Shown here in pieces: positions 8,406 to 60,035 of a stretch of DNA of 64,000 nucleotides (position 1 is the stretch's first letter; every line of letters starts with the position of its first letter). The notes under the pieces are model-generated. The model saw nothing but the letters and a program-made list of their open reading frames with translations. It ran no database searches and had not been told where the DNA came from. The stretch is taken from NCBI GenBank assembly GCA_023410875.1, contig JAEYPH010000062.1:14184-78183 (forward strand), read 5' to 3'. Source of the DNA: Bacillota bacterium. Its GTDB lineage: Bacteria; Bacillota; Clostridia; Christensenellales; UMGS416. The translations under genes were made by a program, and so were the position numbers.

Positions 8406-8494
8406 GCATGGTAAGGAGTTTGCAGGAGTTGTTTCTGCGAGCCGACCTTGCTTTATGACTCAGGATATAGTTCGATGTTTTTTGCTATATGGAT

Positions 8495-8562: not shown

Positions 8563-8568
8563 GTAAAA

Positions 8569-8616
8569 CCTCGGTTGAACGCTCACTTATGAGTGATTCA
8601 ATCGGGGTTTGTTTTT
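8569..8616 (+). terminator. rho-independent terminator after the tRNA remnant
   Basis: CCTCGGTTGAA...TTCAATCGGGG forms an 11-bp stem (two G-U pairs), followed by TTTGTTTTT. Confidence 0.5.
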
Positions 8617-8761
8617 GTACTCTGGACAACATAGCGAACCGAGTCGAGATCGCTTGGCAGAGGCTATCACTGCCTCTAGCTATGCGTTTTTATTCAGTTC
8701 CTTAGCCTTTGCCAGGTGTAGCACGACGAGCTACTCTGCCCCTTTGCTCATGTGATGCGGT

Positions 8762-8796
8762 GAAAAGAAAAGACCGCCCTCAGATGAAGGCGGCCT
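8762..8796 (-). terminator. rho-independent terminator of the 8812-9555 gene
   Basis: Minus strand reads GCCGCC-TTCATCTGAG-GGCGGTC followed by TTTTCTTTTC. Confidence 0.5.
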
Positions 8797-8811
8797 GCGA
8801 CGGATCGCATT

Positions 8812-9555: not shown

Positions 9556-9635
9556 AGTCGATCCTCCTCATATTCTGGCGTGTATATCCAAACTATCATA
9601 TACTACCTGCGAAGATTGTCGAATGGTGCCAGATC

Positions 9636-39576: not shown

Positions 39577-40045
39577 GTACCAGGTGGGGCTCGGCCTTGG
39601 CCTGTGCCGAGGGGATGAAGCGCCCCTGGCGGTTGATGAACAGGCCGTCCAGCACGAAGCTGGCCTTCTGCATGCGCACTGGGCGCTGGCTGTAGATGGC
39701 CAGCAGGGCGTTCTCTTCCAAACCACCGGTGCGCTCCAGTATGCGCCGCTGGGCCTCAGAAGCCAGCGCCTGCGCCACACCGCAGCCTATAAAGGGTTCA
39801 AACACGACAAAATCCAATACTTCCGGCAGCAGATCCTCGGCCTGCTCGGCGCCGAACCACCCAACGCGGGCGAACCCCGCCGGCTGGCTGGCCACTTCCA
39901 CGACCAGCAAATCCACCTCGCCGCTGCGCGCCAGCACGAACCAGCGTTCCAGCGCCGCCGTGCCCAGGTCGCGCCCCTGGCGGCGGAAGGCTTCCGACAG
40001 CCCATGGTAATCCGACGGTAGCATGCTGCGCACGATGATGCCCAT
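39533..40045 (-). CDS. GNAT-family N-acetyltransferase (weak)
   Basis: 170 aa. A beta4-alpha3-like segment VVFEPFIGCGVAQALASEAQRRI. The 3' end overlaps the AEC gene convergently by 44 nt. Confidence 0.55.
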   Translation of the reverse strand: MGIIVRSMLPSDYHGLSEAFRRQGRDLGTAALERWFVLARSGEVDLLVVEVASQPAGFARVGWFGAEQAEDLLPEVLDFVVFEPFIGCGVAQALASEAQRRILERTGGLEENALLAIYSQRPVRMQKASFVLDGLFINRQGRFIPSAQAKAEPHLVLSLSGHRLQSQTQP

Positions 40046-40167
40046 GGCGTTCTCCTGTACCGATTATAAGCCCATTCTATGCGACAGTGAACAAAGGGGC
40101 AACCGGGGAAAGCTGCCGTTCCTTGACGAGTTTTGTTGGTTATGGGCCGGTGGGATTGTTCGCTATG

Positions 40168-40698
40168 CTAACTAAATTTATTAACTATATCAACTGTAGG
40201 ATATCCTAACACTCTTGCTGCATTATAGGCAATTAAATAGAAGTTGCTGTTATAAAGACTATGTAGAATTTTATTGATATCTTCATCGTTAAAATCAGGA
40301 AGTAGATAGATAACATCAATAAGTTGATATTCAGTCTTAGGTAGTTGTTTTGTCAACAGTAAGGTTGTTTTTTTTGCCTCCTCTAGCATTTTCTCGTCCT
40401 TATTAATAGAAAAAACAGCATGCGCTATTGCAATCCTGATAAAGCCATTGCTTCCCGGTAATAGATTATATAAATATGGCAATGACGAGAAAGACCTGAT
40501 ATGACCTAATCCTCTGATAGGCCATGAATCGTCTAAACTCAACGCATCTATTAACTCACTTTCTGCGATTTTCAAATCATCGGCTGAGAGCTCATCTAAA
40601 AGATTAAGTGGAACACCATCTTTTCTCTGTGCCCAGGTTTTGGCATTTAAAAATTCAGAACGGAAAATATTTAGGCTTTCTGATGGCTGAGAGTCCAT
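40168..40698 (-). CDS. hypothetical protein, helical-repeat-like (AT-rich islet)
   Basis: 176 aa. No motif recognised. About 32% GC in a hand-counted line. Confidence 0.45.
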   Translation of the reverse strand: MDSQPSESLNIFRSEFLNAKTWAQRKDGVPLNLLDELSADDLKIAESELIDALSLDDSWPIRGLGHIRSFSSLPYLYNLLPGSNGFIRIAIAHAVFSINKDEKMLEEAKKTTLLLTKQLPKTEYQLIDVIYLLPDFNDEDINKILHSLYNSNFYLIAYNAARVLGYPTVDIVNKFS

Positions 40699-40797
40699 AT
40701 CGACATTACCTTTCTTAGCAAAAAAATCCTCAGTCCAATATTAATAATCTTGAATAGATTTATCATCTTCCACCTCATAAGAGCATACGCACTTCAG

Positions 40798-41613
40798 CTA
40801 TTTTTTCTGCGCCATAAACATGCCGTACTCTCTGGGGAAATAAATGATTCCATGCTCATCCTTACATGAGTCGAAAAAATCCTGCAAACAGCCGACTCGT
40901 GACCTGTCAAAACCAGCCATTGCAGTTGAGGACAGTGCATACTCTACCAAGTCCGCCGAATCCGTTACCTCCAGAAAATCGGCATACAGATACAGTACGA
41001 CATCCTCAAAATTCTTTCTTAGCGGTTCTCGGGCAGTCTGCATCGTGAGGGGATAGTCGCTTTCTTTATAGACATCCAGGGATGGGTCAAACTCCTGCAG
41101 TTTCTCCCGCAGGAATCGGATTGCGCCATTTTTACCGAAGGTAAATGCATAAAAGATGCCTTGCGGCTTAAGCACGCGGTAAACCTCAGCAATTGCTTTC
41201 TGGATGTCTGGAACATGCTGCAACACAAGGATGGCAATGATCACATCGTAAGAATTGTCCGCCGCGTCTATGCTTTGGATATCCAGTTCACGGGCAGTAA
41301 CATTCGCAATATGACCAAACTTGCCTCGAACAATGTCAACCATCGCCGGTGAAAAGTCCGTCAGCTCCAGGGTTGCGCCCTCCGGCAGGGTCTCGATTCG
41401 CCCTTCCCACAGAGAGCCAGTTCCGCAACCTACCTCCAGAATGCGGCAGCCCTCAAAGAAATGATAATTCTCGAATGCCCAGTGCGCCCACTTCTTGTTC
41501 GTGTCATATTTCTGATGCAAGTTCCTGCGTGTGGCAAGATTGTCCTGTGTTTTGTATTGCTCCTGAACTGTACTGGGATTACTGATCTCCGGCATATACC
41601 AAAATCCTCCCAT
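40798..41613 (-). CDS. class I SAM-dependent methyltransferase (AT-rich islet)
   Basis: ILEVGCGTGSLWEGRIETLPEGATLELTDFSPAMV. Alternative start at 41595. Confidence 0.75.
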   Translation of the reverse strand: MGGFWYMPEISNPSTVQEQYKTQDNLATRRNLHQKYDTNKKWAHWAFENYHFFEGCRILEVGCGTGSLWEGRIETLPEGATLELTDFSPAMVDIVRGKFGHIANVTARELDIQSIDAADNSYDVIIAILVLQHVPDIQKAIAEVYRVLKPQGIFYAFTFGKNGAIRFLREKLQEFDPSLDVYKESDYPLTMQTAREPLRKNFEDVVLYLYADFLEVTDSADLVEYALSSTAMAGFDRSRVGCLQDFFDSCKDEHGIIYFPREYGMFMAQKK

Positions 41614-41869
41614 AGTATAAATCCGCAGTCAAAACTCACCCGTTTATTAGTCGATATTAATTATAGCATAAAAGATTGTGATTTTTTGGGTCGCGTGAAT
41701 ATTGCCTGCATCTTTCAATACGGCGAAGCGGTGCCATTGAGAGGCCGTATGCAATACGGCCCTACGAAATTGCGTAAGAAACTGGCAAGCGTTGCCACAA
41801 ACAAAAAAACCGCTTCACCCACCTACTAAACTTCGGCGGCAAAGCGGCTGACAAAAGAGGTTGGCGAAT

Positions 41870-43675
41870 TTAAACTGCTTTCATAAAGCGGTACTGCGCC
41901 TCGCAGAGCTCGTAATAAGCGCCCTTCTGTTCCATGAGTTCCTCGTGGCGGCCGGCTTCTATGATCTTGCCCTGATCCACAACCATGATGCAGTCGGCCT
42001 TGCGGATCGTGGAAAGCCGGTGGGCGATGACGAAGGACGTGCGGCCCTTGAGCACGCGCTCCAGCGCCTTCTGTATCAGCACCTCGGTGCGGGTGTCGAT
42101 GGAGGCGGTGGCCTCATCGAGGATCAGGATGCGCGGATCGGCCAGCAGCGCCCGGGCGAAGGAGATCAGCTGCTTCTGCCCGGTGGACAGGCGGCTGCCG
42201 CGTTCGCGCACTTCGGTCTGGTAGCCGTTCTCCATCTGCATGATGAACTCGTGGGCGTGCACGGCGCGGGCGGCCTCTATGACTTCCTCGTCGGTAGCGT
42301 CCAGCCGGCCGTAGCGCAGGTTGTCCATGATCGTGCCGGAGAAGATGAAGCTATCCTGCAGCATGATGCCCATCTGGGAGCGCAGCGAGTGCAGCTCCAC
42401 GTCGCGGATGTCGTGGCCGTCGATAAGCACGCGGCCCTTATTCACATCATAGAAGCGGCTTATGAGGCTGACAACCGTGGACTTGCCCGCACCGGTGGGG
42501 CCTACCAGCGCCACGGTCATGCCCGGCTTCACTTCAAAACTCACGTCGTCCAGCACAATCTGCCCGTCCTCATAGTCATAGCCGAAGGTCACATGATCGA
42601 AGGACACATGGCCGGTGATGGGGGGCAGGGGCTGCGCGCCTTCCTTGCTATGTATGATAGCCGGCGTATCCATGATCTCGTAGATGCGCTCCAGCGAGGC
42701 CATGGCCGAGAGAATTTCGTAATAGATGTTGGAGATCTGGTTTAGCGGGTCCCAGAAGCGGCCCAGGTACCACGTCATCGCGAACAGCGTGCCCATGGAG
42801 ATCGGGTCCACCGGCGCGTTGATCCAGCGCACGCCGAAATAGTAGATCAGGCATGTGCCCACGGAGCTTACGAGCTCGAAGGCGGGGAAGAAGGCCGCGC
42901 CCAGCTTGATCGCCTTCATCCACGTGCGGCGGATTTCACTGTTGGCGCCGCGGAAGATCCTGGAATTTTCCTCTTCCCGGGTGAAGGCCTGTGTCACGCG
43001 CATGCCGGCCAGGCTCTCGTGCAAATAGGCGTTCATCGTGCTGGACTTCCAGCGCACCTCGCGCCACGCCGAGCGGATGTGGGGCTTGAGCACGAACACG
43101 ATGATCAGCAGCAGCGGCACCACCGCGAAGGCCACCAGCGCCAGCCGCCAGTTGATGACCAGCATGATGGTGGCGATGGCAACCAGCGACAGTGCGTTGG
43201 TCAGCATGTTGACGATGCCCTGGGAAAACAGGCCCAGCAGCGAATCCACGTCGTTGATGACGCGCAGCATGATCTTGCCAGCCGGGCGGGAATCGAAGAA
43301 ATCAAAGCCCAGCGTCTGGATGTGGGTGAAAAGCTCCTCGCGCAGCGTGGCCAGCGCCCGGCGGCCGGTCACGTTCATCAGCCGCACCTTGGTGCGCAGC
43401 ATCACGGAGCCCAGCGCCGCCGCGCCAAGGATGGCCGCCACGATCCACGGCAGCAGAGAATAATCGCCGCCTGTGATGCTGCGGTCCAGCGCCAGGCTAA
43501 TCATGTAGGGCGACACCAGGCCGCACAGCATGTTGATGACCATCGCGACGATGCTCAAGGCCACCAAGCCCCTGTAAGGCTTCAGGTAGCTCAGCACCCG
43601 CAGGAAATAGTGGGTATTGAAGGAGCTTACAAACTTCTCATCGTCCAGCAGCAGCGCCCGTCTCGCTCTAGGCAT
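41870..43675 (-). CDS. ABC exporter, fused permease/ATPase (MdlB/type-I exporter), subunit 2
   Basis: 601 aa from MPRARRALLLDDEKF. Six-TM domain followed by GPTGAGKST, LSTGQKQLISFARAL and ILILDEATA. Start overlaps the upstream stop by 8 nt. The ORF-track N-terminal extension to 43828 is rejected. Confidence 0.9.
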   Translation of the reverse strand: MPRARRALLLDDEKFVSSFNTHYFLRVLSYLKPYRGLVALSIVAMVINMLCGLVSPYMISLALDRSITGGDYSLLPWIVAAILGAAALGSVMLRTKVRLMNVTGRRALATLREELFTHIQTLGFDFFDSRPAGKIMLRVINDVDSLLGLFSQGIVNMLTNALSLVAIATIMLVINWRLALVAFAVVPLLLIIVFVLKPHIRSAWREVRWKSSTMNAYLHESLAGMRVTQAFTREEENSRIFRGANSEIRRTWMKAIKLGAAFFPAFELVSSVGTCLIYYFGVRWINAPVDPISMGTLFAMTWYLGRFWDPLNQISNIYYEILSAMASLERIYEIMDTPAIIHSKEGAQPLPPITGHVSFDHVTFGYDYEDGQIVLDDVSFEVKPGMTVALVGPTGAGKSTVVSLISRFYDVNKGRVLIDGHDIRDVELHSLRSQMGIMLQDSFIFSGTIMDNLRYGRLDATDEEVIEAARAVHAHEFIMQMENGYQTEVRERGSRLSTGQKQLISFARALLADPRILILDEATASIDTRTEVLIQKALERVLKGRTSFVIAHRLSTIRKADCIMVVDQGKIIEAGRHEELMEQKGAYYELCEAQYRFMKAV

Positions 43676-46886: not shown

Positions 46887-47549
46887 ATGGCGAACAGGAT
46901 TCTCATCGTCGAAGACGACCGGGCAATATCGGACTTCATCGCCAGCAACCTGCAATACACAGGATATGAATACGCCGTGTTTGCCGACGGGCTGGAGGTG
47001 GCTCAGTCCTTGCAACGGGACCATGGCTTTGATTTGGCGCTGCTGGACGTGATGCTGCCGGGCATGGATGGCTTTGAGCTCATGGAGTTGGTTGGGAAAT
47101 ATAACATACCGGTGATCTTCGTGACGGCCAGGGCCGACATCTCCTCCAAGATCAAGGGTCTGCGGGATGGCGCCGAGGACTACATCGTGAAGCCCTTCGA
47201 AGTGCTGGAGCTGCTGGTGCGCATCGAGAAAATACTGGACCGCCTGGGCAAACGCAACAGCATGCTGCATTTTCGGGACATCACCGTGAACCTGGAGGAT
47301 CGCGCGGTGTCGCTGGCCGGCGAGGCGGTGGCGCTCAAGCCGCTGGAATTCGATCTGCTGGTCATGCTCGTCAAATACAAGAACCGTACCATTCCCCGGG
47401 ACCGCCTGCTCAACGAGATATGGGGCGTGGATTTTGTCGGCGGCACCCGAACGGTGGACGTACACGTGGCCAACCTGCGCAGGAAGCTCAACCTGCACGA
47501 GGAACTCAAAGGCATATCCAAGATCGGCTACCGTCTGGAGGGGCAATGA
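46887..47549 (+). CDS. OmpR-family response regulator
   Basis: Receiver ILIVEDD...LALLDVMLPGMDG...KPF plus a winged-helix C-terminus ..RTVDVHVANLRRKL..IGYRL. Confidence 0.9.
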   Translation: MANRILIVEDDRAISDFIASNLQYTGYEYAVFADGLEVAQSLQRDHGFDLALLDVMLPGMDGFELMELVGKYNIPVIFVTARADISSKIKGLRDGAEDYIVKPFEVLELLVRIEKILDRLGKRNSMLHFRDITVNLEDRAVSLAGEAVALKPLEFDLLVMLVKYKNRTIPRDRLLNEIWGVDFVGGTRTVDVHVANLRRKLNLHEELKGISKIGYRLEGQ

Positions 47550-48928
47550 AGCTGTGGCTCAAGCTGTCGCTGATCTGCACCGTGCTGTTGTTCTTGATCG
47601 TAGGCATAAGCACTGCGCTGCTGTTGGCGGATTCCCGCGAACAGATCCTGCGCCTCACTGTCGAGAGCTCCATGAAGGAACTGGACAACCTGAACATATC
47701 GTTGTCCAATATGGTCGGCTATTATGGCAAGGAGAATACGCAGTCCATCGTGCAAAGCTCGCTGGTTCGATACTGTTTCTCCCGCCTGGCCGGCAAAACT
47801 GCGGCCCTGTATCAGGGGAAGGAGCCATTGCAATCCAATCTGGTATTCGAACCCGGCGAGCTGCTGTCGCTGGATTCTCTGCGGGCAGGGGAATCCACCC
47901 ATAAGCTCAGCACCGTCGCCGGCACAAGAATTCTGCTGACCGGCTGCAAAACCAAGCTGCTTTCACAGGAATATCGTATCTATCTGGTGAGTGACATTAC
48001 CGATGTGTACTACGGCATTTCTAAAATGGTCATAGAGTTCATCACCATCGCAACTGCCGTAATTCTGGCAGGGTCTGCGCTGATCGTGCTGCTTGTCCGC
48101 CTGGCTACCCGGCCGCTTAAGGACTTGAGCCAATCGGCCAGAAGGATTGCCCAGGGTGAATATGATCAGAGGGCAGACGTACACACGCGGGACGAGGTGG
48201 GGGAGCTGGCGCAGGATTTCAACGCCATGGCCGAAGCGGTGCAGACCCACTTCCAACGGCAGAAGGAGCTCATGCAGCGCCAGCAGCTTTTCATCAGCGG
48301 CCTCACCCACGAGTTCAAAACACCGCTGACGTCGGTGATCGGCCACTCCGAAACCCTGCTCTACACCAAAATGCCCGAGGATGTCGCCGCCAACTCCCTG
48401 GTGCACATCCATGAGCAATGCCGCTGGCTGGAACGGCTGACGCAAAAGCTGCTCCGGCTGGTTGCTCTGCAGGATGAGATCGAGCTCAAGGATGAATCGG
48501 TGGAGGCCCTGCTGGAGGCGGCCAGGGACAGTGTGGCGGAGACGCTGGATCAGCGGGGCGTCGCACTGAGCGTCTCCTGCGGCGTCGATACGCTGCCGAT
48601 GGATTATGACTTGATGATGAGTCTGGTAATTAATCTGGTGGATAACGCATCCAAGGCTTCCGCCCGTGGGCAAACCGTCGATGTGCTGGCCTATGACGGG
48701 ACTATCGAGGTGCGCGACCGCGGCATCGGCATCGCCGCAGAAGAACTGGATAAAATCACCGAACCCTTCTATATGGTTGACCGCTCCCGCAGCAAGCGCC
48801 TGGGCGGCTCCGGGCTGGGTCTGGCGCTGGTACGGGCCATTGCCGATGCCCACGGCGCCCGCCTGCACATCCAAAGCACGCCCGGACAGGGCACGTCGGT
48901 CATGGTCATATTCTCCGATAACAATTGA
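47546..48928 (+). CDS. sensor histidine kinase
   Basis: Two TM segments flank a sensor loop of about 150 aa. HAMP, H-box FISGLTHEFKTPLTS, and HATPase N/G boxes (NLVDNASKA, DRGIGI, GGSGLGLALV). ATGA-coupled to the response regulator. Confidence 0.9.
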   Translation: MKLWLKLSLICTVLLFLIVGISTALLLADSREQILRLTVESSMKELDNLNISLSNMVGYYGKENTQSIVQSSLVRYCFSRLAGKTAALYQGKEPLQSNLVFEPGELLSLDSLRAGESTHKLSTVAGTRILLTGCKTKLLSQEYRIYLVSDITDVYYGISKMVIEFITIATAVILAGSALIVLLVRLATRPLKDLSQSARRIAQGEYDQRADVHTRDEVGELAQDFNAMAEAVQTHFQRQKELMQRQQLFISGLTHEFKTPLTSVIGHSETLLYTKMPEDVAANSLVHIHEQCRWLERLTQKLLRLVALQDEIELKDESVEALLEAARDSVAETLDQRGVALSVSCGVDTLPMDYDLMMSLVINLVDNASKASARGQTVDVLAYDGTIEVRDRGIGIAAEELDKITEPFYMVDRSRSKRLGGSGLGLALVRAIADAHGARLHIQSTPGQGTSVMVIFSDNN

Positions 48929-49005: not shown

Positions 49006-50577
49006 ATGAAGAAAGTCTTTTTGCTTGCCGCCTCGGCCCTGCTGGTGCTTAGCCTGTCAGCCTGCCAGCCGACGCCCAGCGAGAGCATCGTGAAGGGCAA
49101 AGACCTCGACAAGATGATTGAAAGCGCAACCAAGACCAAGCCCCCGACAGGAGCAACCGGCACGGCTGGTGAAACCGCCGCTCCTGCCGGCTCGATGATC
49201 GCCCAGCAGATGGGGGTGCAGCCCAAATACGTCAAGGAGCTCTCGGACGCCGCAGGCAAGGTGAAGATCCATGTAAACGCCGATGTCGTGGTGCCCGACG
49301 CCAAGGGCGTCACCGTGCAGCGGGTGCTGCCCCAGCCACTTACCCAGGCTACCGTGGATACGCTGATCGCCGGTCTGGTCAAGGGAAGGGCGCAGATGTT
49401 TGATGGGGATAGCTATAAACTATCCAAGAGCGAACTTCAGGAGCAGATTTTCAACTTCGAAGCGGCCATGACACAACTGAGCACCCAGGACGACGAGAAG
49501 GTGAATCCGAAATTAAGGGGGGAGGCGGGAAAGGCAGCCTTACAGAGCCAGCTGGATGACTTGAAGAAGCAGCTGGAAACCGCCCCGGATACGGCCACCA
49601 AAACGCCCAGTGAAGGCAAACTGCATGCGGATACCGATGGAGGCGCAGGCGAATCGCTGTATGCACTGGCCCAGAGCGAGCAAGGTGGATATGAGAGCTT
49701 CTGGACGATCAATGATCCATCGAGTAACGTCGCCTTTGTCCGCTATACATCCGAAAAGAATTCCTATTCCAAAAACATGGGCTACTTCTATTCCAAGACC
49801 GCGCTAGAGCAGGCTGAGGCCAGCGGCTATCGCATGGATGTCAGTTTGGCGGAGGTCGCACAGATTCCGGATGTTACGTTGACCGAGGAGGAGGCCAGGG
49901 ACAAAGCACAGCAGCTGCTTCAGGCGCTGGGTATCAATAACATGGTGTGCTATTCCGCCGAGAAGCAATACGGTGGCAGCAGTGAAACCACGATGGGAGG
50001 GACATTTGGAAGACTCTATGGCGATACTCCTTTCGTCAACCCGCGCAAAGCTGTCTGGTACTTGCGCTATGTTCGTGGCGTCAATGGTATCCCCACCACC
50101 TACACGGTGTGGGATTGCATGAAGACAGAGGAAGATTCCCCGGCTGCGCCGTGGTCCTATGAGGATATGACCTTTGCCATAGACGACAGCGGCATCGTAG
50201 GCTTCGAGTGGCGCTCGCCCTATCAGGTGACCGATACGGTCACGGAGAACTCCAATGTGATGTCCTTTGCCGAAGCGATGAACGTTTTTGACACGATGTC
50301 GCTGGCTGTGAACGCGTGGGACGGATATGCCGATGGCAGCCCCAACCTGAAGGGTATCGAGATCGACGTCACCGAGATCCGTTTTGGGCTGACGCGAATC
50401 ACCGAGCAGGACAAGCGCAACTCCGGACTGCTGGTGCCGGCGTGGGACTTCTTAGCGAACGTGACTTACATCATGGAGACCGATGGCAAGACCAAAAGGA
50501 TGACGGACGGTCCCGTGCCCATCCTGACGGTCAACGCCATCGACGGCAGCATCATCAACCGCAGTCTGGGCTATTGA
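49006..50577 (+). CDS. large lipoprotein, hypothetical
   Basis: 523 aa. Signal peptide with lipobox LVLSLSAC. AGGAAGGAG RBS. No catalytic motif recognised. Confidence 0.6.
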   Translation: MKKVFLLAASALLVLSLSACQPTPSESIVKGKDLDKMIESATKTKPPTGATGTAGETAAPAGSMIAQQMGVQPKYVKELSDAAGKVKIHVNADVVVPDAKGVTVQRVLPQPLTQATVDTLIAGLVKGRAQMFDGDSYKLSKSELQEQIFNFEAAMTQLSTQDDEKVNPKLRGEAGKAALQSQLDDLKKQLETAPDTATKTPSEGKLHADTDGGAGESLYALAQSEQGGYESFWTINDPSSNVAFVRYTSEKNSYSKNMGYFYSKTALEQAEASGYRMDVSLAEVAQIPDVTLTEEEARDKAQQLLQALGINNMVCYSAEKQYGGSSETTMGGTFGRLYGDTPFVNPRKAVWYLRYVRGVNGIPTTYTVWDCMKTEEDSPAAPWSYEDMTFAIDDSGIVGFEWRSPYQVTDTVTENSNVMSFAEAMNVFDTMSLAVNAWDGYADGSPNLKGIEIDVTEIRFGLTRITEQDKRNSGLLVPAWDFLANVTYIMETDGKTKRMTDGPVPILTVNAIDGSIINRSLGY

Positions 50578-50711: not shown

Positions 50712-51479
50712 ATGAAAACAGACACCATGGCCTCCGACATCCGGCGAGCCCTGGCGGCAAAGGGTTTCGCTTCCGGCGTTGCCGCAATGACGCTTATGTT
50801 GGCTATAGCGTCGATCGAGACTTTGATTTCCGGATTGAGCGCAAAGCAACCCCTGCCCAATGGGTTTCACACGCAGCTGATTCTTTCGGCGCTGGCCAGC
50901 GACGACGTGGCGCTGGCGCTGCCCATTCTGTGCGCGCTGCCCTTCACGACGGCCTTTGTGGACGACATCAAGAGCGGCTACATCCGGCAATACCTGCCCA
51001 GAGCCGGCGTTCGCGGGTACATCCTGGGCAAGCTCATCGCCTGCGGCCTTTCCGGCGGGCTGGTTCTGGTGGCGGGCCTGGCGGCGGCCTACGGCCTGGC
51101 GGCGCTGGGGCTCACGCCCATGGAGCTGGCTCCGCTGCCTGACGCTGTAGTGCAACCCGTCTGGCCGGAGCTGACGCTGAACGCGCTGATCCTCTTTTGT
51201 TCCGGCGCACTGTGGTCGCTGGTGGGTTTTACGCTGGCCTCGCTGACGATGAGCCGCTACATTGCCTACGCGTCGCCGTTCGTCGTCTATTACGTGCTGA
51301 TCATACTGCACGAGCGGTATTTCAAGCAGTTTTTCGTGCTGTACCCCAAGGAGTGGTTGGTCCGCTCCCACGACTGGATGCTGAACGGCTATGGGATACC
51401 GCTGCTGCTGTTGGAGCTGGCGGCCATTATGGGCCTGGCCTGCGCACTGGTTATAAAGAGGAGGCTGGAGCATGTATAG
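50712..51479 (+). CDS. ABC-2-type membrane protein (permease 1)
   Basis: 255 aa with about 6 TM. First gene of a translationally chained set. Confidence 0.6.
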   Translation: MKTDTMASDIRRALAAKGFASGVAAMTLMLAIASIETLISGLSAKQPLPNGFHTQLILSALASDDVALALPILCALPFTTAFVDDIKSGYIRQYLPRAGVRGYILGKLIACGLSGGLVLVAGLAAAYGLAALGLTPMELAPLPDAVVQPVWPELTLNALILFCSGALWSLVGFTLASLTMSRYIAYASPFVVYYVLIILHERYFKQFFVLYPKEWLVRSHDWMLNGYGIPLLLLELAAIMGLACALVIKRRLEHV

Positions 51480-52368
51480 GGTTGCGCAAGCGTTCGCCGT
51501 AGCCAGGTACAACTTCCGGCTGTGGCACAAAAATCCACGGGTGATACTGACCTTCGCGCTGGCTTTCATACTGTGCTTTCTGCTATCAGACAAGGTGGTG
51601 CGGTTCGCGGCGGAATACAAGACCACGATGCAGATCGTGGAGGCCTTCGTGTGGACATTTGGTGACAGCACATCCATCCTGCTGTGCTCGCTGCTGCTGC
51701 TGCTGCTGTTTGCGGACATGCCGTTCATCAGCCCCGGCACGCCGTTCTTCCTGGTGCGCATCGACCGGCGGACGTGGATCGCCGGCCAGGCGCTGTACGT
51801 CGCCATGGCCACCGCGCTGTATATGGCGTTCATACTGGTTTCCACATCCCTGGTGTGCATGAGCAGCTCCTTCACCGGCAACATGTGGAGTGCCACAGCG
51901 GCCATTCTCGGGTATTCCGGCGCAGGCAAGGCTGTTGCGCTGCCGGCCTCGGTCAAGACGCTGGAGATGAGCACACCCTACGCGTGCATGGTCACAATCT
52001 TCCTGCTGATGCTGCTGTACGCGCTGCTGGTCGCCTTCCTGATGCTGTTGTGCAACATGCGGTTCGGGCACAGGGCGGGGGCGGTCAGCGTGTTCGTCTT
52101 CAATCTGTACGGGCTGGTGCTGAATCCGGAGTTCATCCGCACGGTGTTCCATTTGCCGGAGCGCCTGCAGTACAAGGCCAACGTCGCCGCGGGGTGGCTT
52201 TCACCGCTGAACCACGCGACATATTACATGCACAATTTCGGCTATGATCTGCTGCCACGGCTGTGGCAGACGTACGCGATCTTTGGTTTTCTGATCGTCC
52301 TGTGCTTCGTGGCGGCGCTCTGGGTCGCAAGGGGCTACAATTTCCACTTTGCCGGTACTGAACCATGA
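51472..52368 (+). CDS. polytopic membrane protein (permease 2)
   Basis: 298 aa with about 7 TM. Start overlaps the upstream stop by 8 nt. Confidence 0.6.
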   Translation: MYRVAQAFAVARYNFRLWHKNPRVILTFALAFILCFLLSDKVVRFAAEYKTTMQIVEAFVWTFGDSTSILLCSLLLLLLFADMPFISPGTPFFLVRIDRRTWIAGQALYVAMATALYMAFILVSTSLVCMSSSFTGNMWSATAAILGYSGAGKAVALPASVKTLEMSTPYACMVTIFLLMLLYALLVAFLMLLCNMRFGHRAGAVSVFVFNLYGLVLNPEFIRTVFHLPERLQYKANVAAGWLSPLNHATYYMHNFGYDLLPRLWQTYAIFGFLIVLCFVAALWVARGYNFHFAGTEP

Positions 52369-52394: not shown

Positions 52395-53036
52395 ATGGAT
52401 GCGGTGATCCGCGTGGAAGGCCTGAGCAAGAGCTTTGGCGAGGAACCGGTGCTCAAGGAGGTGACCCACGCCTTTGAGCAGGGCAGGATCCATGGAATCG
52501 TGGGCAACAACGGCAGCGGCAAGACCGTGCTGATGAAATGCATCTGTGGCTTTCTGCGGCCTTCCACCGGACGGGTGCTGGTGGGCGGCAGAGAAGTGGG
52601 CCGGGACATGGACTTTCCCGATGACATCGGCATCATCATCGAGACGCCGGGCTTCTTGCCGGGCCTCTCGGCCATGAAGAACCTGTCCATACTGGCCTCC
52701 CTGCGCAAGCGGATCGACGCGCAGACCATCGCCAGCACGATCCGCCTGGTGGGGCTGGACCCAGCCATGCACAAGCCGGTGGGCAAATTTTCTTTGGGCA
52801 TGCGCCAGCGCCTGGGCATCGCCCAGGCCATCATGGAGGACCCGTCGGTCCTCGTGCTGGATGAGCCCTTCAACGGCCTGGACAAGAGCGGCCAGGCCCA
52901 TATCCGCTCGCTCATCAAAAGTCTGCGGGCCGGCGGCAAGACGATATTGTTGGCCAGCCACAACCAGGTGGATATCGACGAGCTGTGCGACACCGTGTGC
53001 GAGATGGACGCCGGCGTGCTGACGGTGGTGCGATGA
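52395..53036 (+). CDS. ABC transporter ATP-binding protein, BcrA/lantibiotic-immunity type
   Basis: GNNGSGKT, FSLGMRQRLGIAQAI, VLVLDEP, LASHN. GGAGGGAG RBS precedes ATG 52395; the alternative start 52365 overlaps the upstream stop. Confidence 0.9.
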   Translation: MDAVIRVEGLSKSFGEEPVLKEVTHAFEQGRIHGIVGNNGSGKTVLMKCICGFLRPSTGRVLVGGREVGRDMDFPDDIGIIIETPGFLPGLSAMKNLSILASLRKRIDAQTIASTIRLVGLDPAMHKPVGKFSLGMRQRLGIAQAIMEDPSVLVLDEPFNGLDKSGQAHIRSLIKSLRAGGKTILLASHNQVDIDELCDTVCEMDAGVLTVVR

Positions 53037-53701
53037 TGGACGATCTGATCTGCCTGCAAGACGTGGACGTGAACCTGCGGGACGGCGCACGGGCGCTGCG
53101 CGGGGTTACGCTGCGCATCCGCTCCGGCGAGACGGCGGCCTTCCTGGGCGGCCCGGCGCAGGCCCGGGAGGCGCTCATGGGCGTGGTCGCCGGCATGGCG
53201 CCGGCCCGCGCCGGCGTCGTCCGCGTGGCAGGATATGAGTTGAGTACACTGAGCCCCGAAGCCGCGGCGGATTTCCGCGCTGCCCACATCGGGTATGTAC
53301 CCGCCGAGCCGTATTTCCTGCAAGGCCTAACGGCGCTGGAAAACGCGGCACTGCCGCTGAGCGTGCGCGGCATTGGGCGAGCCACGCGGGAGAAGGCGGC
53401 GATGGAGCTGCTGGAGAAAACCGGCCTGCGCCCCATGGCGTTTGCCCGTCCGGCCCGGCTCACGCGGCAGGAGCGGCTGCGGCTGGCACTGGCGCGGGCG
53501 CTGGCGGCGCAGCCGGACATCCTGCTGCTGGACGACCTGGCGGCAGGCGCAATGGCGGCGGAGCTTGCCCGCTTGCGCAGCATACTGGAGCAGCATCGGG
53601 TTGGGCGGACCATCCTGCAATTCGCGCAGGACGACGCCGTGCTTGCGCCGGACCGCACATTCCGAATCATTCATGCAGAAATGAGGGAGGATCCACGATG
53701 A
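53033..53701 (+). CDS. ABC nucleotide-binding-domain homolog (MacB/LolD-like fold) with all catalytic motifs degenerate
   Basis: 222 aa and alignable to LolD/MacB NBDs. At the Walker A position it reads GGPAQAREA. At the Q-loop it reads GYVPA. The signature is LTRQERLR, Walker B is ILLLDDL, and the H-loop is FAQD. Confidence 0.7.
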   Translation: MMDDLICLQDVDVNLRDGARALRGVTLRIRSGETAAFLGGPAQAREALMGVVAGMAPARAGVVRVAGYELSTLSPEAAADFRAAHIGYVPAEPYFLQGLTALENAALPLSVRGIGRATREKAAMELLEKTGLRPMAFARPARLTRQERLRLALARALAAQPDILLLDDLAAGAMAAELARLRSILEQHRVGRTILQFAQDDAVLAPDRTFRIIHAEMREDPR

Positions 53702-55185
53702 AAAAGATATGCCTTGCGACGGTGCTGATACTGGGCTTGCTCCTGGCGCCGGCTGTGGCGCTGGCCGCGGGGGCAACGGCCCAAACCACGCCCACACCCA
53801 CACCAACGCCTACATCCACGGTTACGCCCACGCCGACACCTACGCCCATTGCCAGCCAGGCGCCCCAGGAAACGCCGGAGCCGGCGGACGTCGGGTTCAC
53901 CGTGGACAACCAGAATGTCTACGAAGGCATGGACAAGGCCTATCAGCAGGGGTACACGCCCACCGTGCGCAATGGCAAGGCGGTCGTAATACTGCCGCTG
54001 ATCGCCAGCGGCGAGATGCGGGGGAATTCGCTGACGGCGGTCCCCAACCTGGGGGCCACCGGCGGCTCGCCGTTCGCGTTTCGCAACATCCAGGCCACGG
54101 TCAAGAAAAAGGACTGCGCCGTCAATGACGCAAAGAAGGTTGTCTCGGCCTATCTGATCCGCTTTGATCTGCCGCTGGTATCGGGCAGGGTCAACGGCGT
54201 CTATCCGGTGCAGATCGACGTGCAGGCGAAATCCGCCGGCGGCACGGCCATACAGCAGAGCTTTACGACCTATGTCACGATCCGGGATGGCAAAGACCCC
54301 AACAAAGTGGAGGCGCCGCCGAGCACGCCCAAGCCAGACTCGCAGCCCAAGGTGCTCGTCGAGAGCTACAAGGTGCAGCCCACGCCCATTGAGGCCGGCG
54401 CGGAATTCACGGCGACGGTGACGCTGCGGAACACCAACGAGAAGAGAGCCGTGCAGAACATGACCGTCATGGTGTCCGCGGACAGCCCCAACCTCACGCT
54501 GCTCAATGAGAGCAGTTCCTTTTTCATCCAGAAACTGGGCAAGAGCGAAACCGTGGATCTGGAGCTCAAGTTCCGTAGCGACCTGAACACGCCGCCGCAG
54601 CGCTACACGGTCACGCTGAGCATGGATTATGACAACGACGAGGCCGTGGCGCTGGCCAGCGCCGGCGCCTTCCCGGTGGAGATCGGGCAGCCGCTGCGGG
54701 TGGAGATGGCCGCGCCGGAGCTGGTCTCCACGGTGAACGCCGGGGATACCTTCGCGATGGCGCTGCAGGTCATGAACCTGGGCCGCGGCGCGGTTTACAA
54801 TGTGCGCTGCGAGCTGAATGTGCCGGGGCTGGTGCCCAGCGGCGCGGCGTTCATCGGCAACATGGAGGCCGGGTCCGCCGCCTCGCAGAAGATCGACGTA
54901 TTTGTGGGCACCAGGGACATGGGGCCGGACAAGAACGTCGGGAAATATGGGCTGACCCAGGGCGTCGTCAAGCTGCTCTATGAGGATGGTGACGGCAAGG
55001 AGTACGCTCAGGAATTCCCGGTATCCACGACGATCCAGGAACTGGTCATCACCAAGACCGAGGAGCCGGAGGAGGAGAAGCCCAAGCTGACGGGGCAGTG
55101 GTGGATTTCCGCGCTGATCGCCGCGGGCGTCGTCGCGGCGCTGGTCATCGCACTGCTGGCCCGCCGGAGGCGGAGCGCCGCATGA
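53698..55185 (+). CDS. secreted, C-terminally membrane-anchored surface protein with CARDB/COG1361-like beta domains
   Basis: Signal peptide, a Thr-Pro linker (TTPTPTPTPTSTVTPTPTPTP), repeated beta-rich modules, and a C-terminal TM plus basic tail (WWISALIAAGVVAALVIALLARRRRSAA). Confidence 0.65.
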   Translation: MKKICLATVLILGLLLAPAVALAAGATAQTTPTPTPTPTSTVTPTPTPTPIASQAPQETPEPADVGFTVDNQNVYEGMDKAYQQGYTPTVRNGKAVVILPLIASGEMRGNSLTAVPNLGATGGSPFAFRNIQATVKKKDCAVNDAKKVVSAYLIRFDLPLVSGRVNGVYPVQIDVQAKSAGGTAIQQSFTTYVTIRDGKDPNKVEAPPSTPKPDSQPKVLVESYKVQPTPIEAGAEFTATVTLRNTNEKRAVQNMTVMVSADSPNLTLLNESSSFFIQKLGKSETVDLELKFRSDLNTPPQRYTVTLSMDYDNDEAVALASAGAFPVEIGQPLRVEMAAPELVSTVNAGDTFAMALQVMNLGRGAVYNVRCELNVPGLVPSGAAFIGNMEAGSAASQKIDVFVGTRDMGPDKNVGKYGLTQGVVKLLYEDGDGKEYAQEFPVSTTIQELVITKTEEPEEEKPKLTGQWWISALIAAGVVAALVIALLARRRRSAA

Positions 55186-56324
55186 AGACCGTGGACGTGC
55201 TGCGCATCGCCGCAAGGGGCGCTCTGGGCAAAGGGGGCCTGCTGCCCACCGTGGGGATTGCCGCGTGCGTGTGCTGCCTATGCTTCGCCGGTGCGGGCAT
55301 GGTCAACGTGCGTCAAGAGCAGGCCTTACCCTGCGAACTGACGGTGGCGGCCGGGCAGGTCGGCCTTTCCTCCTCATCATCAGCGCAGCTGGAGCAAATC
55401 CCCGGTGTTGTGGCCGTTACGCCCACCGTGCAGTTCCAGGCGAAGCTGACAGCCGGCGAATACACAGCGAACCTGACCGTGACCGGCCTGCGGGGAGACT
55501 ATGTGAACCAGACGCTGCGGGAAGGCGTCTTATTTCCCGAGAACGCGGCAATGCCCTATCTGCTGCTGAGCCGAGCGGCGTGCGAGCAATTCCGCAAAGG
55601 CACGCTGGAATTTGGGAATGAAGAGCCCGACATCCGCTGGCTGGGCACCGGGCTGATCCTGCAATTGGGCGAAGGAAACAGCGTGTCCGCCCGGGTGTGC
55701 GGCATTCTCGACGGCAAAGCCGAGGAACAGCCGCCGCTGGTGCTGACGGACTATGAAAACGCGCAGGCGCTGCTGCGATCCGTGGGCCAGCCCGTGGACC
55801 CCCAGCAGATTCTCGTGCGCGTGCGGGGCAGCAGCGTCGCGCAACAGGTTGCGGAAAAGATCACAGGGCTGGGATACGCGGTGGCGCAGCCAAATGAGGG
55901 AATGGAACAGATCTGGGCTGCAGCCCGGAAGGAAGCCGGCTATCTGACCCTGCTGGGCGTGCTCTCCCTTTGCCTGGCGGTGTTACAGATGCGCGGTGCG
56001 AGGAAGCTGGCTTTGTGCCGGGGCCAGGGCGTTCTGTATGCTCTGGACTGGCTGGGAATGCGCCGTTCCACGCTGCGGAGGATCAACCTGACACGCACCC
56101 TGCTGACCGCGCTGTACGGCAATGCCCTTGGCCTGGTATTCCTTTCCATCCCCGCAATGATACAGCAGGACGTTGTGGCGGGCACCAGCTTCGCCCTGCC
56201 GGTGCCATGGTGGGTGTGGAGCTCCGGCTTCGCGCTGTCGTCGGTGCTCTTCATTGCCGCCAGTCAGATGAAGCAAAGTACAAACCTGCATCCTTTATCG
56301 GTGGGGGGAGGGGAGTATCTATGA
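55182..56324 (+). CDS. FtsX/MacB-type ABC permease
   Basis: 380 aa. TM1, an extracytoplasmic domain of about 230 aa, then three C-terminal TM segments. ATGA-coupled to the upstream gene. Confidence 0.7.
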   Translation: MKTVDVLRIAARGALGKGGLLPTVGIAACVCCLCFAGAGMVNVRQEQALPCELTVAAGQVGLSSSSSAQLEQIPGVVAVTPTVQFQAKLTAGEYTANLTVTGLRGDYVNQTLREGVLFPENAAMPYLLLSRAACEQFRKGTLEFGNEEPDIRWLGTGLILQLGEGNSVSARVCGILDGKAEEQPPLVLTDYENAQALLRSVGQPVDPQQILVRVRGSSVAQQVAEKITGLGYAVAQPNEGMEQIWAAARKEAGYLTLLGVLSLCLAVLQMRGARKLALCRGQGVLYALDWLGMRRSTLRRINLTRTLLTALYGNALGLVFLSIPAMIQQDVVAGTSFALPVPWWVWSSGFALSSVLFIAASQMKQSTNLHPLSVGGGEYL

Positions 56325-57405: not shown

Positions 57406-58647
57406 TCAGCCCTCGCGCGCAGCCTTGCTCATCGCCGCGGTGCTGCTGTACCACTCCAGCGCATCCACATAGATATGCGCCACATCGTCCATGCACAGCT
57501 GCAGGCCTGCTGCCAGCGTCGCGGCTTCGTCGAATTCACCCTGCTCATAGTGGAGCATCAAGGCATAGGTTCTGCCCAGCGGAGAGGAGAGGTCGCCGCG
57601 GATCAGGATGGCCTTGATCGTATCGGAAAGATTCAGGCAGCCCAGCAGGCTTTGGAAGGTGCAGCCGGTCAGCGCATCCAGCAGCGAGAACAGGCCCAGC
57701 AGCGCGTACTCGGCGCTTTGCCCGGCTTGCCCGGCGCGCCGTGCCAACAGGTCCAGGAACGTGGAGCGGATCAGAGAATGGGAAATCAGCACGTCCGGCT
57801 TGTTCCTGGCCAGGCGGGACAGCACCGACATGTTGACCCATTTGCGCACGCCTTCCATCCCCAGCATCACCACGGCGTCCTTCACCGACGAGAGCTTGTT
57901 GCGCCGGGCGTAGTAGGCGGAATTGACGAGCTTGATCGTGTCCAGCGAGAAGGCCACATCGCTTTCTATGGCGCTGATGATCTTGCCGAAGTCCGGCGAG
58001 GGTTCGTGGATGGCCTGCATCAGCTGCACATAGGCCATCTTGGTGGGCTGCACGGCCTTGGCGCTCAACGTGACCGGCCGGGCAAAAAAATAGCCCTGGA
58101 ACAGGTCGTAACCCAGCTTCATCGCGTGGACGAATTCGGCCTCGGTCTCCACCTTTTCGGCCAGAAAGCACAGCTTTCTGCTGCGATAGCGCTCGATGAT
58201 GGCCTGCTGCTGGCCGGCGTCGTTGGCTCGGAAATCCACCTTGATGACATCGGCCAGCTCCACCAGCGCGTCATAGCCCGGCTGCAGCACGTAATCGTCC
58301 AGCGCCAGCGTGTATCCAGCGGCCTTGAGCGCCCGGCACGCGGTCAGCACCTCCTCGGTGGGCTCCACGGTCTCCAGAATTTCCACGACGACTTGCTCGC
58401 GGGGCAGCAGCATCGGCACACCCTGCACCAGCAGGCAGGCGGTGAAGTTGATATAGGCCATCGTGTCGTCGGCCAGCACGTCCAGCCCATAGGACAAAAA
58501 GGCGCTGGTGATGACGCAGGAGGTCGCGTAGTCGCCATCTTGGGCGGTGTAGGCGCAAGCCTCGGGGGATTCCCGGTGCAGCAGCTCATAGGCGACGATG
58601 CTCTTGCGCCTGTTGAAGATGGGCTGCCTGGCAACATGCAACTGCAT
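57406..58647 (-). CDS. EAL plus HDOD domain protein, paralog A (EAL metal ligands retained)
   Basis: 413 aa from MQLHVARQPIF (GAGGAG RBS). YELLHR, INFT, EILET, LALDDY, IKVDF, AEKVET, and FQGYFF, followed by an HDOD region. Confidence 0.8.
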   Translation of the reverse strand: MQLHVARQPIFNRRKSIVAYELLHRESPEACAYTAQDGDYATSCVITSAFLSYGLDVLADDTMAYINFTACLLVQGVPMLLPREQVVVEILETVEPTEEVLTACRALKAAGYTLALDDYVLQPGYDALVELADVIKVDFRANDAGQQQAIIERYRSRKLCFLAEKVETEAEFVHAMKLGYDLFQGYFFARPVTLSAKAVQPTKMAYVQLMQAIHEPSPDFGKIISAIESDVAFSLDTIKLVNSAYYARRNKLSSVKDAVVMLGMEGVRKWVNMSVLSRLARNKPDVLISHSLIRSTFLDLLARRAGQAGQSAEYALLGLFSLLDALTGCTFQSLLGCLNLSDTIKAILIRGDLSSPLGRTYALMLHYEQGEFDEAATLAAGLQLCMDDVAHIYVDALEWYSSTAAMSKAAREG

Positions 58648-58706
58648 GGGCGACTCCTCGCGATCTTCCGGCGCCATTGCCGGTTCTATTGTGTTTTGCT
58701 GTGAGA

Positions 58707-59948
58707 TCAGCCTGGCTGGTTGGCAGCCTGCTTGAGCCAAATGTGGTCGTTGTACCATCGCAGGGATTGGATATAGACATCGGCAACGGTGTCCATCGGC
58801 ACACCCAGCGCCTGCGCATAGGCGGCGGCGCCTTCCCAGTCTCCGCGCTCGTAGCTCTGCATCAGCGCATAGGCGCCGGCCATGGCAGAATTTTTCTCTG
58901 TCTGCAGCAGCACAGCCTTGACCTCTTCGGAGATGTTGAGGCTGGTCAGCATCTTGTCAAAGGGACAGCTGGTCAGAGCGTCCAGCAGCGAGAAAAGCCC
59001 CAGCATGTAGAACTCCGGCGCGCGCCGGTGCAAGCCCAGCGCGCGGGCCAGCAGCTCCAGGAATTTGGAACGGATCAGCGATGTGCTCACCAGCACGTCG
59101 GGCTTGTTCTTGCCCAGCTTGGTCAGCGTGGAAAGCGTGATCCATTTGCGCACGCCCTCTATGCCCAATGTCACGATGGCCTGTTTGACCGAATAGATCT
59201 TGTAGCGCCGGGCGAAGTAGGCTGAGTTCACGAGCTTGATGGTCTCCAGCGACATGGCAACGTCGTTCTCTATGGCCACGATGATGCTCTGGAAATCCGG
59301 TTGTTCCTCGTTGACCGCCCGGATAAGCTGGATGTAGCCCAATTTGCTGATCGGTATGGTGCTGGCGGTGTAGATGACCGGATGGGCGAAGAAATAGCCC
59401 TGAAACAGCGAATACCCCATGATTTGCGCCGCGTCGAAAGCCGCATCGGATTCCACGCGCTGCGCGAGGAAGCGGGTGCTGCCATGCCGGGCGGCCAAAA
59501 GAGCCCGTTGGTCAGCCAGCGAACAATGCTGCACGTTGACTTTGATGATGTCCGCCAGAGTGAGCAGCCGGCTTTGGCTGTGTTCGGCGGTGAAGTTGTC
59601 CAGCGCGATTGTGTAGCCGGCGGATTTCAGCTTGCAGGCGGCGTCGTAGGCATCATCACTCTGCAGCACATCGGGGGAGAGCTCTATGCCCAGCTGCTCG
59701 TGGGGAAGCAGCGTGGGGATGCCCTGGGTCAGCAGAAACGGCGTGAAGTTGACATAGGCCATCTTGCCCTCGGTCAGCATGTCCAGGCCCAGCGTCAGAA
59801 AGCCGCTGGTCAGCACGCTGGAGGTGGCCTGGTCGTCGTCTTCAGCCTCGTAACGATTGGTGTTCTGGCTGCCCCTGTGCAGCAGCTCATAGGCCACAAC
59901 GTTTCTGGAAGCATCAAAAATAGGCTGGCGCGCCACATGCAAGTCCAT
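58707..59948 (-). CDS. EAL plus HDOD domain protein, paralog B (EAL motifs partly degenerate)
   Basis: 413 aa from MDLHVARQPIF. YELLHR and VNFT are retained. The other motifs read IELSP (not ELTE-like), IALDNF (DD to DN) and IKVNV (KxD to KxN). Confidence 0.8.
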   Translation of the reverse strand: MDLHVARQPIFDASRNVVAYELLHRGSQNTNRYEAEDDDQATSSVLTSGFLTLGLDMLTEGKMAYVNFTPFLLTQGIPTLLPHEQLGIELSPDVLQSDDAYDAACKLKSAGYTIALDNFTAEHSQSRLLTLADIIKVNVQHCSLADQRALLAARHGSTRFLAQRVESDAAFDAAQIMGYSLFQGYFFAHPVIYTASTIPISKLGYIQLIRAVNEEQPDFQSIIVAIENDVAMSLETIKLVNSAYFARRYKIYSVKQAIVTLGIEGVRKWITLSTLTKLGKNKPDVLVSTSLIRSKFLELLARALGLHRRAPEFYMLGLFSLLDALTSCPFDKMLTSLNISEEVKAVLLQTEKNSAMAGAYALMQSYERGDWEGAAAYAQALGVPMDTVADVYIQSLRWYNDHIWLKQAANQPG

Positions 59949-60035
59949 AGGATACCCCTGATATGATTGCTTCCCTCTATATACCACGAAAGAATAGAGG
60001 TAAACCCATCAAACAGGAATTATCCTTTATAAGAA

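Follow-up and report, generated by a model that had tools for sequence, protein, structure and literature searches.

ATP-binding cassette (ABC) systems of type VII, such as MacB, FtsEX, LolCDE and BceAB, are machines that turn the binding and hydrolysis of ATP into movements outside the membrane. What can the nucleotide-binding domain (NBD) of such a system still do once the motifs for handling ATP are gone? This question is raised by a gene on contig JAEYPH010000062.1 of a Bacillota bacterium (Clostridia, Christensenellales, UMGS416; assembly GCA_023410875.1), where a stretch of 64,000 nucleotides (positions 14,184 to 78,183 of the forward strand), here called the window, was analysed; all coordinates are counted from its first letter. 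The gene, NBD2 (53033-53701, + strand), encodes a type VII (MacB/FtsE/LolD-like) NBD of 222 residues, recognised with PF00005, sequence alignments, AlphaFold2 and Foldseek. It belongs to an operon that runs from a DUF6034 lipoprotein through two membrane proteins (TM255 and TM298), the ATPase NBD1 and NBD2 itself to a secreted surface protein (sec495) and an FtsX-like permease (perm380). Our analysis suggests that NBD2 is probably a pseudo-ATPase, acting as a non-catalytic structural cap or adaptor on the permease.

Motifs and fold of NBD2

By profile and by fold, NBD2 is a member of the ABC ATPase superfamily, and it is without the motifs of catalytic competence. Residues 22-168 match PF00005 (ABC_tran) with an E-value of 4.8e-12 and 47.1 bits, about half of the 100 bits reached by NBD1 immediately upstream and above the Pfam gathering cut-off of 25 bits. 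The best NCBIfam models are YbbA, FtsE, LolD and MacB, with all scores far under the family cut-offs, and no curated model in the NCBIfam scan reaches its cut-off with NBD2. In a phmmer search against PDB sequences, NBD2 aligns over its whole length with YbbA and the MacB NBD, and its matches among single-NBD entries are led by proteins of the YbbA, MacB, FtsE and LolD types (E 1e-18 to 4e-24). The AlphaFold2 model has a mean predicted local distance difference test (pLDDT) score of 94.8 from a 77-sequence alignment, and resembles YbbA, MacB, Spr0694, FtsE, BceA and LolD with TM-scores of ~0.9 (Foldseek probability 1.00), although this confidence is partly owed to the canonical NBDs that dominate the alignment, and the model is best read as fold-compatible rather than as independent proof.

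The positions of the motifs were fixed with MAFFT and with phmmer alignments against the YbbA and MacB structures. The Walker A equivalent, GGPAQAREA (residues 39-47; 53147-53173, + strand), is without the Lys-Ser/Thr of the consensus GxxGxGK[ST], while the glutamine of the Q-loop aligns with Ala91. The signature LSGGQ/E is replaced by LTRQE (residues 143-147; 53459-53473, + strand). The Walker B strand, ILLLDD (residues 163-168; 53519-53536, + strand), retains Asp167, with Asp168 in the place of the catalytic glutamate, and the H-loop equivalent, FAQD (53621-53632, + strand), carries Gln199 for histidine. A preliminary description of the window had claimed that every catalytic motif is lost from an intact, fold-preserving gene lying next to a canonical ATPase, and its motif positions agree with the profile, phmmer and MAFFT alignments in every detail. 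Two losses absent from its list can be added, namely the aromatic residue of the A-loop, now Leu15, and the D-loop (PTGALD), which has become an unrecognisable LAAGAM. Alignments of the whole of NBD2 place no intact ABC motif at any other position. The open reading frame (ORF) is unbroken and overlaps both of its neighbours by the four nucleotides ATGA, with the stop of the upstream ATPase at 53034-53036 and the start of the downstream gene at 53698, and the same overlap is found at the next two junctions downstream.

To our knowledge, all characterised type VII NBDs are active ATPases, in which ATP binding and hydrolysis drive mechanotransmission. NBD2 resembles these proteins (MacB, FtsE, LolD, YbbA, BceA and Spr0694) in being matched best by them in sequence and fold, in its size of ~220 residues, and in having a permease encoded nearby that carries an extracytoplasmic domain like MacB_PCD and an FtsX-type bundle, but differs from them in lacking the A-loop, Walker A, Q-loop, signature, catalytic glutamate, D-loop and H-loop residues. 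As no ATP-binding or catalytic motif is left in the alignment, the parts are type VII-like, but the system would be unable to work as a type VII system through NBD2.

That nucleotide-binding sites can degenerate is well known, and in exporters such sites have a structural or regulatory role rather than a catalytic one (PMC7828314, PMC11466899). With the degenerate-site heterodimeric exporters (BmrCD, TM287/288, CFTR and the Pdr5-type) NBD2 shares non-consensus motifs that are tolerated and kept by selection. In those exporters, however, each NBD is only half degenerate, Walker A binds ATP and one consensus site is left, whereas NBD2 is free-standing and has lost every motif. With Walker A and the signature both gone from one chain, it can form no consensus site with any partner, as the preliminary description had reasoned. 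A search of open-access papers gave no description of a fully dead, free-standing NBD in a type VII system, of this NBD family, of DUF6034 or of this operon, which is absence of evidence only.

Selection on NBD2 and the degeneration of its family

Among 5.8 billion proteins searched, the fully dead pattern recurs in only two further clusters, P0002 (53% identity) and P0003 (50%), both within the same operon, and in a profile search of 1.84 billion representatives the window clade forms one single 50%-identity cluster. The substitutions GGxAxxRxA, LTxxERLRL, LLLDD and SQEE are common to both orthologs and the window NBD2, and the P-loop region of the three shows no conservation beyond GGxAxxRxA. 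Two stretches, TALENAALPL (residues 100-109) and ERLRLxLARALA, are invariant in the three proteins, which are ~55% identical overall.

How much of this is selection, and how much a gene left to itself? One explanation is that NBD2 is a functionless vestige in decay, its ORF held open by the overlapping, translationally coupled genes on either side, where a stop or frameshift would be polar on essential downstream genes. The ATGA overlaps at both ends fit this explanation, as does the ratio of nonsynonymous to synonymous substitution rates (dN/dS; pairwise NG86 with bootstrap, three window-clade orthologs), which at 0.34-0.52 for the whole of NBD2 is among the highest in the operon, alongside 0.30-0.45 for the permease, 0.25-0.31 for the surface protein and 0.07-0.21 for NBD1, TM298 and TM255. 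Residues 1-31 have a dN/dS of 1.08, which makes the N-terminus neutral. The P0003 ortholog (locus L002) has moreover lost ~65 residues in frame, comprising the strands at the N-terminus and 25 residues that follow the P-loop helix, which together form the beta-subdomain that in ABC NBDs normally holds the adenine ring.

Against decay stands the finding that none of 300 bootstraps of the NBD2 dN/dS reaches 1, and that residues 131-170 (nucleotides 53423-53542), which cover the second half of the helical subdomain, the signature helix and the Walker B strand, have a dN/dS of 0.13. In a substitution-only neutral simulation, an NBD2-like ORF stays open in 1.2% of runs at K=0.73, the divergence observed. 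These values come from three sequences with synonymous sites near saturation, which tends to inflate omega and so makes the test conservative. From the dN/dS values, the bootstraps and the simulation, it follows that NBD2 is under real, yet relaxed and regionally focused, purifying selection. No ortholog contains a stop or frameshift, and with the constraint on residues 131-170 this rejects a simple pseudogene. Coupling, furthermore, requires only an open frame and leaves the constraint on amino acids, including the two invariant stretches, unexplained. The earlier suggestion that the gene is maintained rather than decaying thus holds for residues 131-170, but not for the neutral N-terminus, and it has to be set against the beta-subdomain deletion and the shrinkage or loss of the domain elsewhere. 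The operon in a second sample (L080) provides no unsaturated dN/dS comparison, being 100% identical.

A wider view is given by 76 loci, retrieved from 185,579 GTDB species representatives with a broader alignment of sec495 as marker. A contig scan with patterns from the three close sec495 orthologs found nothing among the GTDB representatives, where the closest sec495 relative is no more than 52% identical and the species itself is apparently missing; the operons closest to that of the window come from Christensenellaceae-like metagenome-assembled genomes (MAGs). The 76 loci are from Christensenellaceae, Lachnospiraceae, Oscillospiraceae and further Bacillota MAGs, and from the cultured Guopingia tenuis NSJ-63 (L028) and Bacillus niameyensis SIT3 (L026). 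The order DUF6034, TM255, TM298, NBD1, [NBD2], surface protein is shared by them, with sec495 in 76/76 and the DUF6034 gene upstream in most, and a permease homolog, detected with a hidden Markov model built locally from the retrieved loci, lies directly downstream in nearly all. A word-indexed search with perm380 returned 2 proteins only, because the permease evolves fast.

Across these loci NBD2 is found in a series of states: canonical, with Walker A only (most loci), fully dead (the window clade and independent lineages), reduced to a fused remnant, or absent. It is fully canonical at one locus only, L072 (Candidatus Scybalosoma faecavium; 5112-5828), with GTSGSGKST, Q, LSGGQ, DE and H; the permease there (7418-8719) is longer and divergent, at 433 residues; either this state is ancestral or an ordinary MacB-type pair has been substituted here. 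Almost all other NBD2s retain Walker A (GxxGSGKT) and are without the Q-loop glutamine, LSGGQ (now LSxxE), the D-loop and the H-loop histidine, and in these the catalytic glutamate is often lost as well (DD, NE or YE). In an exhaustive profile search, 32 of 66 single-domain representatives (50%-identity clusters) have neither signature nor H-loop, and Walker A is kept in 15 of these and lost in 17. The 17 are scattered over a neighbour-joining tree built with the Walker A columns removed, whose basal members retain Walker A and the Asp-Glu pair, and three independent Walker A-less lineages that were checked (P0297, P0312 and P0333) all carry the gene in this operon, with identical overlaps. 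Taken together, the motif series and the scattered losses of Walker A indicate that the window NBD2 is no one-off. It stands at the far end of a large and unnamed family of type VII NBDs that are non-catalytic, and in this family the ability to bind ATP appears to have been given up repeatedly.

The probable partner of NBD2 and its retained subdomain

The permease perm380 (55182-56324, + strand) matches PF12704 (E 2.3e-7) and, weakly, PF02687 (E 0.011). A scan for transmembrane (TM) segments gives the order TM1, a MacB_PCD-like extracytoplasmic domain, TM2, a coupling loop, TM3 and TM4, with the coupling loop, ALDWLGMRR, at about 56031-56084 (+ strand) between TM2 and TM3. The full arrangement, including an ALDWLGMRR-like loop, occurs only alongside NBD2. 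Both are present in 29 loci (29/29 of the full-length-permease loci whose NBD2 region is covered by the contig), a truncated permease without NBD2 is found in 25, a truncated permease with a barely recognisable NBD2 in one (L039), and a full-length permease without NBD2 in none of the assessable loci, although these counts overstate the statistical weight, as a rough tree points to perhaps 2-4 independent co-loss events. NBD2 presence thus follows the coupling loop and TM3-4 in 54/55 assessable loci, and the direction of co-loss is consistent even though the loci are phylogenetically non-independent. Where NBD2 is missing, the permease stops just past TM2 (most Lachnospiraceae, 260-290 residues) or past TM3, and its extracytoplasmic domain is retained in every case. 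The short homologs of L052, L058, L063, L047, L075 and ~20 more Lachnospiraceae consist of TM1, the extracellular domain and TM2, that is, a bitopic or two-pass anchored MacB_PCD-like domain with no FtsX bundle and no NBD.

Rates of evolution are compatible with the same partnership. NBD2 and the permease evolve similarly fast, ~4x faster than NBD1 and TM298, and the distance matrix of NBD2 correlates with those of sec495 (0.88), the permease (0.86) and NBD1 (0.84), which fits a permease partner but does not single it out. NBD1 stays 90-93% identical with or without NBD2, and so is independent of it. From this pattern of gene content, NBD2 probably belongs with perm380 and not with the NBD1 upstream, and we infer that the two bind physically. 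The proposal of the preliminary description, that a dead domain might serve as a scaffold for the FtsX-type permease, is favoured by these comparative data.

Which part of NBD2 is under selection is suggested by three Lachnospiraceae species in which the NBD1 ORF is extended at its C-terminus by ~110 residues (L033:4553-5584; L034:4562-5575; L038:4619-5584). The core of the extension, ~60 residues, is homologous to residues 97-159 of NBD2 (BLASTP E 9e-7; hhalign probability 96%, E 2.6e-9), which make up the helical subdomain and signature helix (53321-53509, + strand), and the RecA-like core is missing. The remnant has a dN/dS of 0.07-0.10, near the 0.05-0.07 of the NBD1 part, and the linker is variable at ~0.3. 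In NBD2 the equivalent region holds TALENAALPL and ERLRLxLARALA and overlaps the constrained residues 131-170, which points to the non-catalytic helical subdomain and signature helix as the part that is selected. In solved type VII transporters, the helical subdomain lines the groove that takes the coupling helix of the permease. All three fusion loci have a canonical MacB-type ATPase close downstream (L033:8472-12846, L034:8460-9161, L038:10190-10963; motifs GPSGAGKTT, LSGGEQQR, DEPTGALD and H), which in L033 is followed by a 1227-residue FtsX-family permease; this ATPase may be part of an unrelated BceAB/MacB-like system or a functional replacement.

The mechanism that we propose, and consider probable, is one in which NBD2 keeps the type VII fold but would neither bind nor hydrolyse ATP. 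Probably as a dimer, it would sit on the cytoplasmic face of perm380, where its helical subdomain would hold the TM2-TM3 coupling loop, stabilising or positioning the four-helix bundle without a nucleotide cycle and without acting as a motor. The conserved task of the permease would lie in its extracytoplasmic domain, probably together with sec495 and the DUF6034 lipoprotein, and the sole ATP-driven part of the operon would be the LanFEG-like module of NBD1, TM255 and TM298.

Several points weigh against this mechanism. The high dN/dS over the whole gene, obtained from only three sequences, the deletion in L002 and the many lineages that do without NBD2, with most Lachnospiraceae loci having lost it outright, are also compatible with a domain that is being lost. 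The joining of the remnant to NBD1 is a hint that NBD2 may lie close to NBD1 as well as to the permease, and all of the partner assignments are drawn from gene order and co-loss. A vestige in decay is nonetheless unlikely: to the constraint within NBD2 can be added the low dN/dS of the equivalent remnant fused to NBD1, and the lineages without NBD2 have also remodelled their permease, which argues for a functional dependence.

The hint from the fusions leads to a variant in which NBD2 plugs the type VII permease into NBD1, its helical subdomain gripping the coupling helix and the remainder contacting NBD1. We regard this as doubtful, slightly more so than decay. If true, one LanF-like ATPase dimer would drive both the type V-like TM255/TM298 exporter and the motions that the permease and its Ig-like partner make outside the cell, in a hybrid, two-fold ABC supercomplex whose type VII motor had been made redundant.

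A little less credible again is a regulatory heterodimer, in which dead NBD2 would pair with NBD1 and modulate its ATPase cycle, in the manner of the degenerate half of heterodimeric exporters. The two genes are always adjacent and overlapping, the remnant is fused to NBD1 in three species, and the correlation of their distances (r 0.84) remains 0.66 as a partial correlation. The two proteins are, however, from different ABC families, NBD1 being LanF/DrrA-like with an E-loop and NBD2 MacB/FtsE-like, and the loss of both Walker A and signature from NBD2 leaves neither composite site consensus, unlike known heterodimers. NBD1 is unchanged in the ~45 loci without NBD2, the fused remnant does not include the RecA-like core that makes the NBD-NBD interface, and the presence of NBD2 follows the cytoplasmic half of the permease and no feature of NBD1. 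NBD1 was rejected as the dimer partner on the difference in family and on its independence of NBD2. The preliminary description is also corrected here, in that the canonical ATPase next to NBD2 is of another ABC family, presumably serves the two membrane proteins encoded upstream, and is not a natural dimer partner.

Very improbable, finally, is a cryptic activity, in which a non-canonical pocket of NBD2 would take up a nucleotide or another phosphorylated ligand and the protein would serve the permease as a sensor or switch, for although most relatives keep Walker A without the hydrolytic residues, which suggests that binding without turnover was once selected, and Walker B Asp167 is kept, the window clade has no P-loop Gly-Lys-Ser/Thr, A-loop aromatic, Q, signature or H, its P-loop region is barely conserved and one ortholog has deleted the adenine-binding beta-subdomain, leaving such binding plausible for the Walker A-keeping relatives and hardly for this clade.

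The operon, its relatives and its meaning

The neighbourhood of NBD2 looks like two ABC modules, a LanFEG-like one of NBD1 with TM255/TM298 and a type VII-like one of NBD2 with perm380. Directly upstream of the cluster, Pfam identifies an OmpR-type response regulator (46887-47549, + strand) and a HAMP/HisKA histidine kinase (47546-48928, + strand), which are probably its regulators. The first gene of the conserved cluster encodes the DUF6034 lipoprotein (49006-50577, + strand; PF19499 E 2.4e-73), with the lipobox LSLSAC. TM255 (50712-51479, + strand) and TM298 (51472-52368, + strand) are two different polytopic membrane proteins, each with 5-6 hydrophobic segments and in conserved synteny, neither of which has a Pfam or NCBIfam match, the LanE/LanG models included.

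NBD1 (52395-53036, + strand) is a canonical LanF/DrrA-like ABC ATPase whose orthologs have a dN/dS of ~0.08. Its best NCBIfam model is TIGR03740, a lantibiotic-protection ATPase (E 3e-51; 174.2 bits, with a cut-off of 309.75), followed by DrrA and GldA, and where the Q-loop aligns it carries an E-loop (IIIETPG), with glutamate for glutamine. An alternative ATG at 52365 would give an ATGA overlap with the TM298 stop, and from this start the genes from TM255 through the alanine racemase that follows perm380 would be an unbroken chain of overlapping genes; the gene callers of the source contig chose 52395.

The E-loop is a hallmark of LanFEG transporters (bioRxiv 10.1101/2025.10.09.681468), and together with the best match to TIGR03740 it makes NBD1 and the two upstream membrane proteins look LanFEG-like, with TM255 and TM298 presumably the LanE/LanG-like subunits that serve NBD1. 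The likeness extends to the two different membrane subunits, the lipoprotein and the two-component system alongside. The differences are that NBD1 scores below the TIGR03740 cut-off, that TM255/TM298 match no LanE/LanG model, that no lantibiotic genes lie near the NBD1 module, and that LanFEG loci are without a second NBD, an FtsX-like permease or an Ig-like protein.

Between NBD2 and the permease lies sec495 (53698-55185, + strand), a secreted, immunoglobulin (Ig)-like surface protein recognised from Pfam CARDB (E 9e-5), its AlphaFold2 model and the names of its homologs. It has a signal peptide and a Pro/Thr linker, three beta-sandwich domains of the Ig-like/CARDB kind, and a TM segment as anchor at its C-terminus. 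Its homologs are named 'COG1361 S-layer family', and the gene always stands between NBD1/NBD2 and the permease. Foldseek with the model returned generic tandem Ig-like matches only, for example integrins and factor XIII.

A close two-module counterpart in gene content is YtrBCDEF of Bacillus subtilis, in which YtrB2CD forms an ABC-2/type V-like module and YtrE2F2 one of type VII, YtrF being composed of MacB_PCD and FtsX (PMC11466899). The Ytr operon is induced by cell-wall antibiotics, and overexpressing it gives phenotypes that remain in the absence of either ATP-binding protein (PMC8060467). In phmmer, YtrE matches NBD2 at E 3.9e-19, and the resemblance of the two operons is one of architecture only; phmmer against PDB sequences gave no match for perm380, TM298 or sec495, although the PDB holds a YtrEF entry. 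The Ytr operon differs in gene order, in lacking both the DUF6034 lipoprotein and the Ig-like surface protein, in being controlled by a GntR repressor rather than a two-component system, and in that no degeneracy of YtrE is reported, a comparison made by description and not by motifs. For the operon of the window, resemblance in the two-component system, the lipoprotein and the LanF-like ATPase suggests that it is probably an inducible unit of antimicrobial-peptide defence or of the response to cell-wall or envelope stress, under the two-component system upstream.

Several further observations concern the surroundings of the operon. Just past the operon, two EAL+HDOD paralogs are encoded in tandem (57406-58758 and 58707-59987, both - strand). 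Against L080, whose ABC operon is identical throughout in DNA, the window contig differs by 2-8% in one of the EAL paralogs and in genes for an aminotransferase, an MFS protein and an ABCB protein, a mosaic suggesting recent recombination, or else that the operon has swept. The window has ~61% guanine-plus-cytosine overall, with two low patches, 8001-10000 (47%) and 40001-42000 (44%), which are possibly acquired DNA; the first contains a zinc-ribbon/DUF4352 protein (8812-9555, - strand) and the second a class I S-adenosylmethionine methyltransferase (40798-41613, - strand). A further ABC-2 pair is encoded on the - strand by an ABC2_membrane_5 permease (6848-7486) and its ATPase (7483-8376), and a 754-residue ORF (27603-29867, - strand) has no Pfam match at E <= 0.001.

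For the biology of gut Clostridia, the locus brings to light a widespread and unnamed seven-gene envelope operon that combines a DUF6034 lipoprotein, a LanFEG-like transporter, an Ig-like protein and an FtsX-like permease. Its second NBD warns against the annotation 'ABC transporter ATP-binding protein' for genes of this kind. Across the family, nature has disabled a motor in a series, with the signature, Q-loop and H-loop going first, then the catalytic glutamate, Walker A and the RecA core, and finally the whole domain, while the extracellular domain of the permease and the rest of the operon stay conserved. An FtsX-like extracellular domain is evidently useful without an ATPase of its own, and in an NBD that has ceased to hydrolyse ATP, the helical subdomain is marked out as the smallest part still selected. 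The dead domain alone would be a modest curiosity; the graded series, together with the remodelling of the permease, makes it an unusually clear natural experiment on the role of an ABC domain after hydrolysis.

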